The notes under the pieces: generated by a model | Database searches by the model: none | What the model was told of the DNA's origin: nothing | What the model saw: only the letters and a program-made list of their open reading frames with translations | Assembly: GCA_965216315.1 (NCBI GenBank) | Contig: CBDCFN010000016.1 | Coordinates: 1,024,001 to 1,088,000, forward strand | Origin: a bacterium | GTDB taxonomy: Bacteria; UBA10199; 2-02-FULL-50-16; JAJFLM01 | Direction of reading: 5' to 3' | DNA length: 64,000 nt | Position numbers and translations under genes: made by a program | Shown here: one piece after another, positions 50,495 through 62,394 of the stretch | Layout of the letters: each line of letters begins with the position of its first letter | Numbering within the stretch: the first letter of the stretch is position 1

Positions 50495-50866
50495 ATGTTG
50501 TTAGCAAAGGTTATCCTGAAAATTGTCGGTATTGCAGTTCTGTGTCTCTCCGGCGTGAAAATTGCGGCTGCCCAGGTACCCTACATCGATGGGCAGATTG
50601 GTGGGCATGTTAACACTGTTGAAGCCGCTGGTGACATTGTTTTTGTAACTTATGACGGTGCGCTTCAAATCATTGACTGCATAGAATTAGCGAAACCAAC
50701 TCTACTCGGCACGTGGACAACGCTTGGTGGCGCCAATGCGAATGGGGGAGGCTGCGGTTGTAGTGTCCAAGCCGCTCAGCCCAACGCTCAGTGGCAAGAA
50801 GCCATTATAATTGGCTTAGTTATGCTTTTTATGTTAGGTATTCGGTTACGCAGTTCGGGAGAGTAA
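50495..50866 (+). CDS. Short secreted protein with one LVIVD-like unit and a MYXO-CTERM-type anchor
   Basis: GAGGAGG RBS; signal peptide; ALQIID..P.LLG; GGGCGCSV + TM + RLR. Confidence 0.7.
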   Translation: MLLAKVILKIVGIAVLCLSGVKIAAAQVPYIDGQIGGHVNTVEAAGDIVFVTYDGALQIIDCIELAKPTLLGTWTTLGGANANGGGCGCSVQAAQPNAQWQEAIIIGLVMLFMLGIRLRSSGE

Positions 50867-58896: not shown

Positions 58897-61800
58897 GTGA
58901 GTGTGGTGCGACTTGAACTCAGACGGTATCGACGACCTGCCTGGGCCGTTGTTGTTACTGTTATAACATTTTTTCTCTGTGCCCCTGTTTTTGCGGCGAC
59001 CCTTCAAGTCGATATGAAAGATCCTGACTGTGGTCAGGTTAACAAGCCCTATTGTAAAATCGAAAACGCAATCAATAACTCAGCCGCTGGAGATACAATT
59101 GAGATTGCCTCCGGCATCTATATAGAAAACGTCATGGTTGGGCACGATCTGACGATTAACGGCGAAGACCGAGATACAACCATCGTTGACGGGAACAATG
59201 TTACCTATGGCGCTCGTTTTGCCCCTTCAACGACAGTCACTGTCAACAATATGACTTTTCGCAACGGGAAGTATTCGCGTGGTGCGGGGATTTATACGTA
59301 TGCGCAACAATTAACGCTGAATAACGTGGCACTCAAACACAACAGTGCGGACGTCAATGGCGGGGCGATCCAGTTTGAACGAGGCAATCTCACTATCAAT
59401 GATTCCATTATTGAGCGCAATCGTGCCAGCGAATTCGGTGGGGCGATCTATGTCCATCCGGATGCAACATTGCTGACGATCAATAATAGCAAGATTCGGC
59501 ATAACAATGCCGGCGTCGAGGGGGGAGCTATTTTCCATCAGGGTGAGAAAGTTAAGCTAGATAAAGGAACGCGCATTCAGGGCAATAAGGCCATCCAGGA
59601 TGGTGGGGCCCTCTTTGTACATCAAGAGGCGGATGACCTGGAAATTCATGATAGCTCTATTCTATTCAATCGTACTGAAAAGCGCGGTGGGGCGATGTTT
59701 TTACACGGTGGCAATGTGACGATTAAGGGCAGTCATATTAATCATAATACGGCCCTTGGGCAGGGGATCAATCAGAATGGTGGTGGCGCTATTTATGCCA
59801 ATGGAAGTCAGATGAATATAGATAATACGGTAATTAGCGGCAACCGAACCGAAGGTTCCGGTGGAGGAATTTTGCTGCGCGCCAGTGGTGATCTTGTGAT
59901 CACAAATAGTGTCCTAAGCTATAATTATGCCGGATTCAACGGTGGCGGTTTTGATCTCGCCTTGCAAGGAACGACACTTGATGCCCGCAATGTGACGATT
60001 AGCGGGAATGCGGCCAAAAAGCGTGGCGGCGGTCTTTTTAGTAATAATCACGTCCACTCGAAACTTAATAACGTGACGATCACGAAAAATATTGCGGCCG
60101 CAGTCAACGATCCGGATGGGCATGGCGGCGGTATTTACCTCTTTAGTATGCCGAACAATGATAAGCTCGTCTTTGAAATGAGCAATACGATCGTTGCGGG
60201 GAACAAGAGCTTGATCAATAGTGGTAACGATTGTCTGACGGCGGCGACAAAGCTCAAATCGTTGGGACATAACATTGTCGGTGATTTGGGCGCACAATGT
60301 ACGCTTGATCCCGCCGCTGGAGATCCGGCCTCGACGGATCAAACCGGTGTGCCTGATGTCATGTTAGGCGTATTGGCCGACAATGGGGGTCCGACACCAA
60401 CTCACGCACTACTGGAAGGGAGTCCGGCTATCGATAAGGGTAATAATGATAGCTGTGAGTCTGCAGATCAGCGCGGCTATGACCGACCTTTTGATGGTGA
60501 CGAGAATGGGGTGGCAGATTGCGATGTCGGGGCTTATGAATTTGGGGCGGAAGGCGACGGCGAGCCAGATGATGGCGGTGATCCCGGTGACACGCCTGCC
60601 GATGAAGGTGTTTTGCCGGGGCCTGATGGCGGAGCGGGTGACGGCGCAGGAGAAGCGAATGGCGCCAAAGAACTACTTGAGGTTCAAGGTGGCGGTTCTT
60701 GTGGTTGTGATATTCGAGGGGTCCAAGCCGCGCCGACGTGGATGCATGCGTGGCTTGCCTTGATGGGAGCCTTTTTTGCAGTGATAATCGGGCTTCGTTT
60801 TCGGAGGCATAAAGTCAAAGCGAGCTTGTTTCTGGTTGTTCTATCCCTCTTGGTCTGGAGTCAACATGTTGAAGCGGCGAGCACGCTCAAAGTTGACCGA
60901 TCTGACCTGAATTGTCAGGCGGCTGCTGAACCCTATTGCACGATCCAGGCGGCCATTGATGATGCGACGGCAGGGGATACTATCGAGATTGCTGCTGGGC
61001 TTTATTTCGAAAACCTCATCGTGCCTGACAACAAGGAACTTATTATTAAGGGGAAGGGTTATAGCCAAACAATTCTTGATGGACGCAACCTAGGGCCCGT
61101 CATTGAGCTTAAGACTTTTACGGATGTGGAAATTGAGGGTGTCACTCTCCGTCACGGTAAGGCTCCGTTTGGAGGGGGCATTATTACCGTGGGGGATGAT
61201 TTAGAAGTCCGTAATTCCGTGATTGCTTTTAATAGCGCAACCAATGTTTCGGGAGGGGGCATCTATTCGGCAGCGAATCTTGGTCGCTTAAAGCTCGTCA
61301 ATAGTACGGTGCACTACAACGCGGTAACGGGTCCCAATGGAAACGGAGGTGGCATCTATTGGAGCGGCATCGGTGGCGCTTTTCTCGATAAGACCCACGT
61401 TGTTGGGAATTATGGGGACGGAAATGGAGCGGGCGTTCATATCGCCTCCGGCGCTGCGCTGACGATGACTGAAGGCAAGATTGCAGCAAATCGTGCCGGT
61501 GATAATGGCGGGGGGCTCTTTCATGCTTCAACCGGTGAATTAAGCGTTAATAAGACCGTAATTCGGGAAAATCATGCAGGTTTGGCGGGCGCCGGCGTCT
61601 ACATCGGTAATCAAGTGACCGAGAGTAAGATTTTGCAGAGCCAAATCAAAGGCAATCATGTTAGTCAGTCGGATGGCGGCGGCATCCTTCATGGGGGAGG
61701 TAAGCTGACGCTTGTAGATACCGAAGTCAGCGGCAATCGCGCTGCAGAAGGAGCGGGTATTCGCGCCACGGCTAATCTCGATATTGAGAGAAGTACTATG

Positions 61801-62394
61801 AGTTACAATCTTGCGACGGTTGATGGCGGGGGTGTTTCTGCCGAACTTGGCGTTGCACTTAATATGCTCAACAGTACGGTCAGTGGTAACGCCTGTTTCA
61901 AACACGGAGCGGGAATTGATGCCCTAGGCACGAGCCATCTTCACTACGTAACGATTACAGGAAATGTGGCGGATCTAGATGAAGATAACGTTGGTGCCGG
62001 TGGCGGAATGAGTTTCTCGGACAACATGCACATGGAGAATTCACTTCTCGCAATGAATCGAACGTATAGCGGTGATGGTCATGATTGCTCCGGTAAAATT
62101 AAGTCTGATGGTTATAATCTGATTCGTGACTACGATGATACGAATTGCAAGCTGGACCCTGCGGGATACGATCCGGCCTCTAAAGACATCACCGGTCTCA
62201 CCAATGATCCTAAGCTAGGTCTATTGAAAGATAATGGCGGCTCCACTCCGACGCACGCGATTAACGAAGGCAGTGTTGCCATTGATGCGGCTGATCCCAA
62301 TAGTGCTGAAGCAAAGGATCAACGTCAGGCACCGCGCCCTGCCGGGAATCATAATGATATAGGTGCCTTTGAATACAACAGCCAAGCGCCTTAA
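58897..62394 (+). CDS. Two tandem beta-helix (GGAI-repeat) / choice-of-anchor Q modules joined by an internal MYXO-CTERM anchor and second signal peptide
   Basis: Both modules start TLxVD...C....PYC.I..AI....AGDTIEIA.G.Y.EN and end L.DNGG.TPTHA...GS.AID...DQR...D.GA.E. Confidence 0.88.
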   Translation: MSVVRLELRRYRRPAWAVVVTVITFFLCAPVFAATLQVDMKDPDCGQVNKPYCKIENAINNSAAGDTIEIASGIYIENVMVGHDLTINGEDRDTTIVDGNNVTYGARFAPSTTVTVNNMTFRNGKYSRGAGIYTYAQQLTLNNVALKHNSADVNGGAIQFERGNLTINDSIIERNRASEFGGAIYVHPDATLLTINNSKIRHNNAGVEGGAIFHQGEKVKLDKGTRIQGNKAIQDGGALFVHQEADDLEIHDSSILFNRTEKRGGAMFLHGGNVTIKGSHINHNTALGQGINQNGGGAIYANGSQMNIDNTVISGNRTEGSGGGILLRASGDLVITNSVLSYNYAGFNGGGFDLALQGTTLDARNVTISGNAAKKRGGGLFSNNHVHSKLNNVTITKNIAAAVNDPDGHGGGIYLFSMPNNDKLVFEMSNTIVAGNKSLINSGNDCLTAATKLKSLGHNIVGDLGAQCTLDPAAGDPASTDQTGVPDVMLGVLADNGGPTPTHALLEGSPAIDKGNNDSCESADQRGYDRPFDGDENGVADCDVGAYEFGAEGDGEPDDGGDPGDTPADEGVLPGPDGGAGDGAGEANGAKELLEVQGGGSCGCDIRGVQAAPTWMHAWLALMGAFFAVIIGLRFRRHKVKASLFLVVLSLLVWSQHVEAASTLKVDRSDLNCQAAAEPYCTIQAAIDDATAGDTIEIAAGLYFENLIVPDNKELIIKGKGYSQTILDGRNLGPVIELKTFTDVEIEGVTLRHGKAPFGGGIITVGDDLEVRNSVIAFNSATNVSGGGIYSAANLGRLKLVNSTVHYNAVTGPNGNGGGIYWSGIGGAFLDKTHVVGNYGDGNGAGVHIASGAALTMTEGKIAANRAGDNGGGLFHASTGELSVNKTVIRENHAGLAGAGVYIGNQVTESKILQSQIKGNHVSQSDGGGILHGGGKLTLVDTEVSGNRAAEGAGIRATANLDIERSTMSYNLATVDGGGVSAELGVALNMLNSTVSGNACFKHGAGIDALGTSHLHYVTITGNVADLDEDNVGAGGGMSFSDNMHMENSLLAMNRTYSGDGHDCSGKIKSDGYNLIRDYDDTNCKLDPAGYDPASKDITGLTNDPKLGLLKDNGGSTPTHAINEGSVAIDAADPNSAEAKDQRQAPRPAGNHNDIGAFEYNSQAP

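Follow-up and report, generated by a model that had tools for sequence, protein, structure and literature searches.

An in-frame fusion of two bacterial surface-protein genes with an internal sorting tail and a second predicted signal peptide

The MYXO-CTERM/myxosortase system, described from the lineages Myxococcota or Bradymonadales, is represented by the tail model TIGR03901 and by MrtX, MrtC and MrtP (Haft preprint, 10.1101/2023.06.07.544157). Internal MYXO-CTERM motifs are rare in open reading frames (ORFs) according to an mBio article of 2025, whose passage on the subject gives MXAN_5598 of Myxococcus xanthus as one case and treats it as a probable two-gene fusion with an N-terminal part proposed to be still processed and surface-anchored (PMC11980579). 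The locus presented here lies in a window of 64,000 nucleotides, the whole stretch of DNA that was analysed (GenBank assembly GCA_965216315.1, contig CBDCFN010000016.1, positions 1,024,001 to 1,088,000 of the forward strand; GTDB lineage UBA10199, 2-02-FULL-50-16, JAJFLM01). It is a single ORF at 58897..62394 on the plus strand, with a GTG start, 1165 codons plus a stop and zero in-frame stops, which a gene caller renders as a 1162-amino-acid protein (P0001). Our analysis revealed that this ORF is a real in-frame join of two neighbouring surface-protein genes, made at the place where the stop of gene 1 and the start of gene 2 would be, and its sequence features indicate that the product is probably cut back into two proteins during export. 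The parts of the ORF, in window coordinates, are the following.

58897..62394, plus strand: the whole fused open reading frame, with identical Logan contigs over 60300-61300.
58897..58995, plus strand: predicted signal peptide 1, M1-A33, with a basic n-region, a hydrophobic core and VFA↓A, placed from the translation and from unit homology that begins at A33/A34.
58996..60552, plus strand: unit 1, a beta-helix passenger with a terminal choice-of-anchor Q domain (60355-60543), from profile matches.
60553..60687, plus strand: acidic Gly/Asp/Pro-rich linker, residues 553-597, from the translation.
60688..60708, plus strand: Gly-rich Cys motif of the sorting tail, G598-C604 (Cys602, Cys604), with a Cys column that is invariant over 15 junctions.
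60739..60795, plus strand: transmembrane helix of the tail, W615-L633, 19 residues, from an end-to-end alignment with the C-terminal tail of the window's 123-amino-acid ORF.
60796..60819, plus strand: basic loop R634-K641, 8 residues, readable from its sequence both as the cluster of the tail and as a signal-peptide n-region.
60820..60876, plus strand: predicted signal peptide 2, residues 642-660, with h-region A642-W654 (13 residues) and c-region SQHVEA, from the sequence and the junction profile.
60877..62391, plus strand: unit 2, A661-P1165, a beta-helix passenger with a terminal choice-of-anchor Q domain (62206-62379) and without a C-terminal tail, from profile matches and the unit alignment.

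The two units are homologous. Unit 1 matches the choice_anch_Q model NF041518 at residues 487-549 (87.6 bits, against a cut-off of 25 bits), together with NosD-like and POMP repeats, Pectinesterase and Chlam_PMP, and the same choice-of-anchor Q model matches a second time at residues 1104-1161 of unit 2 (74.3 bits). An alignment of one unit with the other spans 533 columns at 36% identity (E 1e-70); its first pair is A33, where signal peptide 1 ends, and A661, so that the mature N-termini coincide within one residue. Between the units stands the tripartite signature of a sorting tail, consisting of Cys602 and Cys604, a helix at 615-633 and an Arg/Lys loop at 634-641, and 524 residues follow its basic cluster, so that the tag is not C-terminal. 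The segment directly behind the tail helix has the anatomy of an internal signal peptide, with five Arg/Lys and one His in the loop, an h-region of 13 residues and V-E-A↓A, and signal peptidase I is predicted to cut between 60876 and 60877, where Val occupies position -3 and Ala position -1. The original prediction, made from the letters of the window, had described a single uninterrupted ORF with two homologous beta-helix/choice-of-anchor-Q modules and had aligned the residues after VEA with those after signal peptide 1; both descriptions were borne out, and residue mapping confirmed where it had placed the Cys motif, the first transmembrane helix, the basic cluster and the hydrophobic stretch. 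At its downstream end, the stop codon of the ORF overlaps, at 62391-62394, the stop of a convergent minus-strand kinase/FGE-like gene.

Several features of the DNA support an open junction with coding sequence on both sides. Not one stop interrupts the 505 codons of unit 2, while its two alternative frames contain 23 and 58; of 2000 shuffles of unit 2, 0 stayed open, and the GC content by codon position (GC1/2/3) follows the same pattern in unit 2 as in unit 1. Logan contigs from sequencing runs X1 and X2, which represent two samples, cover 60300-61300 with 0 differences and no indels, at a depth of about 5x and from a single study, possibly the one behind the assembly itself; contigs of run X3 do not cover the junction, and those of run X4 break at 60752-60779. 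The contig sequence over the junction, which the original prediction had singled out for checking with reads, thereby agreed with the assembly, and its statement that no in-frame stop and no Met lie between the basic cluster and module 2 also held: neither ATG nor GTG occurs between the basic loop and unit 2, and the sole start-type codon is a TTG at L644 (60826-60828) within the hydrophobic stretch. A Shine-Dalgarno (SD)-like GGAGG occupies 60803-60807 in the basic loop; GTC, which is not a start codon, follows 6 nt later and the TTG 18 nt later. The open junction is neither an assembly artefact nor a one-off design.

The same arrangement recurs within the genome under study (G000), which holds 7 stop-free tail-to-signal-peptide junctions in 5 ORFs; ordinary C-terminal tails, built of a Gly-Gly-Cys motif, a spacer, a helix and an Arg/Lys cluster, number 22 among its six-frame ORFs. 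An ORF of 2997 codons at C16:2348413-2357406 on the minus strand (L022) has 3 junctions and four complete units, each running from its own signal peptide through a beta-helix and a choice-of-anchor Q domain to a Cys tail, and at 3 of its 3 junctions an SD-like motif formed by tail Arg codons is followed, after 7-9 nt, by an in-frame ATG. The ORF at C16:1726230-1728476 on the plus strand (L023), about 750 codons long, passes without a stop from a Cys tail into a signal peptide of the lipoprotein type, which has a lipobox Cys, and then into FG-GAP repeats; it also gives a weak match to the NCBIfam 'lipo-invert' tail NF058595 (E 0.0028, below cut-off). The 853-codon ORF at C16:822614-825175 on the plus strand (L024) joins an MXAN_2561-like tail protein, through tail and signal peptide, to an MXAN_2562-like outer-membrane barrel (75.8 bits, below cut-off), with matching junctions in genomes G015 and G005. 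The 994-codon ORF at C16:2256001-2258985 on the minus strand (L179) runs from a passenger through a Cys tail and a signal peptide into a TraB-like/OmpA outer-membrane half (TraB-like 186.9 bits, below cut-off; Pfam OmpA 68.6 bits), and similar junctions are found in G001 and G073. The downstream partners fused elsewhere include an outer-membrane barrel, TraB/OmpA-like and lipoprotein units, and the partner in these three kinds of fusion must be released.

Beyond this genome, the design was surveyed across the class with a profile built from 15 aligned junctions, in which the Cys column and the -1 Ala column are both invariant. The survey covered 93 genomes from 24 families and gave 533 matches. 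Among the 150 matches listed, 39 stop-free rows from 21 genomes span both junction halves; 15 of these are the training rows, and all 24 non-training rows show a junction on opening (22 by rule, 2 by eye). A further junction with a shorter span was found in G087. The design is therefore present in at least 22 of the 93 genomes and in 10 of the 24 families, a lower bound; the original prediction had proposed searching related genomes for the same internal tail and signal architecture with other passengers. The ORF in our window is itself recovered by profiles lacking it or lacking all rows of this genome, over residues 599-669 (i-E 0.004 and 0.0046 among 4779 ORFs), with cover of model positions 2-67 of 71 and 1-66 of 70. 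In a library of 1.84 billion proteins, 4 of the best 149 non-self representatives carry junctions (P0031 one; P0043, P0050 and P0071 three each), all of them proteins other than the target, and a one-genome-per-species scan with an alignment of four-unit proteins returned true junctions at 2 of 77 loci, both in one metagenome-assembled genome, and none at the remaining loci from many phyla. Candidates rejected as junctions were L056, L088, L108 and the antisense frame of L032, judged by eye to be polytopic or non-coding frames, and P0014, a false positive.

Some of these junctions have been maintained over considerable divergence. Genome G010 contains a 3091-codon ORF with three junctions and a 1498-codon ORF with one. 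The four units of the longer ORF and those of P0043 are orthologous and collinear, the G010 units being 75, 79, 73 and 68% identical to their counterparts where different units share about 45%; all three junctions have thus been kept open through that divergence. Junction 2 of the 2997-codon ORF is retained in G001, and barrel-type fusions recur across several families. A tandem array in G020 (L026, C11:17000-29000) holds both states side by side: at one junction, which is fused, the basic cluster of the tail runs directly into the next hydrophobic core, and at the next junction, in the same frame, a single stop is followed by an ATG seven codons later. Comparison of the two states suggests a small in-frame deletion as a route to fusion. 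In the genome under study, a signal-peptide gene lies within 50 nt downstream of 3 of the 22 tail genes.

The tail within our ORF resembles a C-terminal tail encoded in the same window, and the enzymes that would act on such a tail are encoded. It aligns with the true C-terminal tail of the 123-codon ORF at window 50495-50866 with a pairwise E of 3e-7. That plus-strand ORF encodes a small secreted protein whose C-terminal tail has the same Cys-Gly-Cys variant as the target, and a signal-peptide-bearing ORF begins 46 nt downstream of it. Separately, several exported proteins of this genome, such as one encoded by a 1099-amino-acid ORF, end 2-3 residues after Gly-Gly-Cys-Ser-Leu without a helix, in what looks like a short form of the tag. 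A single CPBP gene in the genome passes the Mrt_core myxosortase model (120.2 bits, cut-off 100 bits), which is passed in 0 of 14 control genomes; this gene stays below the MrtP, MrtC and MrtX cut-offs. Within the class, 39 of 41 genomes have one myxosortase match, and 37 pass the cut-off. Signal peptidase I (LepB, 153 bits), the secretin GspD (522 bits) and Lgt (157 bits) are also encoded. According to the mBio article, the enzyme that lipidates the tail Cys has not been identified, and Lgt is the leading candidate (PMC11980579). As a side observation, a divergent Lgt-like gene of 283 amino acids immediately precedes the myxosortase gene in the same orientation (C16:1905574-1906425, minus strand); it aligns over its full length with TIGR00544 at 103 bits, below the 118.9 cut-off, and the standard Lgt gene (157 bits) lies about 4 kb away. 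An Lgt-like neighbour was found by tblastn at 29 of 30 class myxosortase loci (L030/L031, L120-L148), the single miss being at a contig end.

Taken as a topology, these features suggest a route by which one translation product could yield two exported proteins. The Sec machinery would export unit 1 until the tail helix halts transfer, leaving the 8-residue basic loop in the cytoplasm, and the 13-residue hydrophobic stretch would then re-enter the membrane as a signal peptide and carry unit 2 across. Cleavage by signal peptidase I after VEA660 would free unit 2 into the periplasm. Unit 1 would be treated as a usual tailed precursor, with lipidation of the Cys, cleavage by myxosortase and type II secretion to the cell surface, following the model set out in the mBio article (PMC11980579). 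Unit 2 may be soluble or secreted, because it has no tail. We favour, with some reserve, the reading that the ORF is a fusion whose product the export enzymes would split, leaving unit 1 anchored and unit 2 free. The original prediction had likewise assigned the basic cluster a dual role and proposed two products; the anatomy, the recurrent junctions and the encoded enzymes are in line with this much of it, the cuts at VEA↓A and at the Cys being predicted ones, and the evidence gives no sign that the 1:1 stoichiometry it named is the purpose of the fusion. The fusion in our window may have been selected for co-production or may simply be tolerated, since normal maturation of both units is possible in this topology. 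A broader reading, which we advance tentatively and hold with less than even confidence, is that stop-less junctions in the class, one of uncultured bacteria, are a regular, selected encoding of two to four exported proteins per frame, to be resolved by signal peptidase I or II and by myxosortase at each internal tail, with the tail Arg codons doubling as a Shine-Dalgarno sequence where an optional start has been kept. Under such a regular polyprotein scheme our ORF would be an obligate case, since a separate start codon for unit 2 is lacking.

A number of observations weigh against a polyprotein that is processed and selected in this way, and the first of these concern the tail. The original prediction had called it a MYXO-CTERM signal, and the profile check attached to that claim failed: the NCBIfam model TIGR03901.2 (cut-off 20 bits) gave 0 matches at E<=10 to the target tail, whether supplied as 78-, 59- and 49-residue pieces or as the whole protein. 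Ordinary tails of this genome fare variably with NCBIfam, in that 5 of 7 match TIGR03901, 1 of the 7 lies above its cut-off, and 1 matches JDVT-CTERM above the cut-off of that model. Our own profile of 19 C-terminal tails from this genome does align the target tail end to end (residues 598-637), with a weak score of 12.0 bits (i-E 0.039 in a set of 4779 ORFs), a value within the range set by internal tails of a different ORF, which the same profile scores at 12.3, 20.4 and 9.2 bits. The target tail is atypical for MYXO-CTERM, and since the NCBIfam model misses it, the label stands on the Cys/helix/basic anatomy and on lineage-specific profiles, and not on the curated TIGR03901 model. The destination of unit 2 is likewise a guess, as no anchor is present, and the possible shared origin of the X1 and X2 contigs with the assembly belongs among these reservations.

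The remaining points against the polyprotein concern conservation. No orthologue of the target fusion was found in 40 relatives, where the best matches reach about 39-43% identity per unit, and a junction-region search of a 5.8-billion-protein set gave 0 of 18 non-self matches with the junction. In G001, which belongs to the same family, the slot between the orthologues of the kinase (41%) and the efflux gene (68%) holds one single-unit beta-helix gene whose tail is followed by a normal stop, and its identity to each of the two target units is as low as 30-32%; in G002, the gene next to the kinase likewise ends in a tail and a stop. With no fused orthologue and with single-unit genes in G001 and G002, the target fusion is confined to this lineage. 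It is lineage-specific, and selection on it is not demonstrable from the sequences at hand. Given the missing orthologue and the single unit in G001, a tolerated lineage-specific fusion explains the target as well as an adaptive polyprotein does.

Four alternatives to resolution during export were weighed. The one that survives best, though we regard it as unlikely, is that the product remains uncut as a two-helix hairpin in the inner membrane with both beta-helix units in the periplasm. In its favour, cleavage is a prediction, the loop is only 8 residues long, and the NCBIfam MYXO-CTERM model fails to recognise the tail. Against such a hairpin, the second hydrophobic stretch has 13 residues, a length that fits a signal peptide and is small for a stable helix; Val and Ala stand at -3 and -1, the Ala being invariant over the 15 aligned junctions; and the same design stands elsewhere before outer-membrane barrels and lipoprotein lipoboxes, which need release.

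Decidedly unlikely, in our judgement, is that two tightly packed genes recently lost, by accident, the stop and start that had separated them, in a neutral or mildly harmful event after which unit 2 would be decaying and the GGAGG and GTC would be relics of a ribosome-binding site and a GTG start. The 6-nt spacing of those two elements fits such an event, as do the unfused genes with stops in G001 and G002 and the want of a fused orthologue, the close packing of tail genes and signal-peptide genes in this genome, and the G020 array with its fused and stop-separated junctions. Unit 2 is undecayed, however, by its 505 stop-free codons, its codon-position GC content and its choice_anch_Q score of 74 bits, and fusions of this kind have been kept elsewhere over long divergence.

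We consider it highly improbable that unit 2 arises mostly from separate internal initiation, which would make the long ORF a stop-less operon and not a polyprotein. The idea draws on the SD-like motifs 7-9 nt before in-frame ATG codons at all three junctions of the 2997-codon ORF and on the GGAGG in the target's own basic loop. Overall, an SD-like motif lies 3-12 nt before an in-frame start at 6 of the 17 junctions with DNA, those three included, so that internal initiation is possible at some junctions; near the loop, a Met is missing from 10 of the 22 junctions tabulated. The target offers no such site: no ATG, GTG or TTG follows its GGAGG within 3-12 nt, the TTG 18 nt on falls in the h-region, and without a stop codon the upstream ribosomes would read through in any case. 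That an assembly or sequencing error masks a stop or frameshift at the junction is scarcely credible, since for all the low depth of about 5x and the break in the X4 contigs, separate contig builds from two samples are identical here and the design recurs in many genomes.

If resolution during export is correct, the usual assumption of one exported protein per bacterial reading frame would need amending, as a tag and a signal peptide set back to back could give several exported proteins from one translation product. For annotation, it would mean that such ORFs are being called single giant adhesins while their internal tags are overlooked. For mechanism, these ORFs would offer natural substrates on which the action of myxosortase and signal peptidase at internal signals could be examined, and for evolution they would indicate that tightly packed genes for secreted proteins can fuse with their function kept. 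They would also form a parallel to viral polyproteins, which are resolved in eukaryotic cells.

Comparison with known systems places the locus between several partial likenesses. The FbcH cytochrome b/c1 precursor of Bradyrhizobium japonicum, attributed to Thony-Meyer et al. 1991, is reportedly a membrane polyprotein that is split at an internal signal-peptide-like sequence after a transmembrane segment; unlike our ORF, it is said to belong to a respiratory complex and not to secreted passengers, to lack a sorting tag and to have a single junction. A substrate of ArtA in Haloferax volcanii is likewise said to carry a tripartite signal of the C-terminal type that works from an internal position, reportedly as part of the archaeal PGF-CTERM/archaeosortase system and, unlike the target, with no signal peptide after it. 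Viral glycoprotein and flavivirus polyproteins resemble the proposed topology in that stop-transfer helices alternate with re-initiating signals and host signal peptidase makes the cuts (PMC5113920, PMC6756788), but they depend on the eukaryotic endoplasmic reticulum and share no sequence kinship with the target, so that the likeness is an analogy. To the MYXO-CTERM/myxosortase system as outlined in the preprint, the genome corresponds in its tripartite Cys tails, its single CPBP protease above the Mrt_core cut-off, its type II secretin and its choice-of-anchor passengers; it differs in that the curated model leaves the target tail unscored and passes 1 of 7 ordinary tails, the myxosortase falls below the MrtP, MrtC and MrtX cut-offs, and the tag is internal.

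The nearest published counterpart is MXAN_5598; a literature search for bacterial polyproteins with internal signal peptides or sorting signals returned nothing beyond the 2025 mBio passage on it. Like our ORF, MXAN_5598 has a mid-ORF tag in which an invariant Cys is followed by a helix and a basic cluster. Its partner is an outer-membrane barrel/OmpA protein, whereas the partner in the target is a paralogous beta-helix passenger without an anchor, and the passage describing it makes no mention of a second signal peptide, of resolution by signal peptidase or of multi-unit forms (PMC11980579). The architecture of MXAN_5598, to the extent given in that passage, has its own counterpart in this genome in the 994-codon TraB/OmpA-like ORF. 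Judged against that passage, fusions of this kind have been noted once in print.

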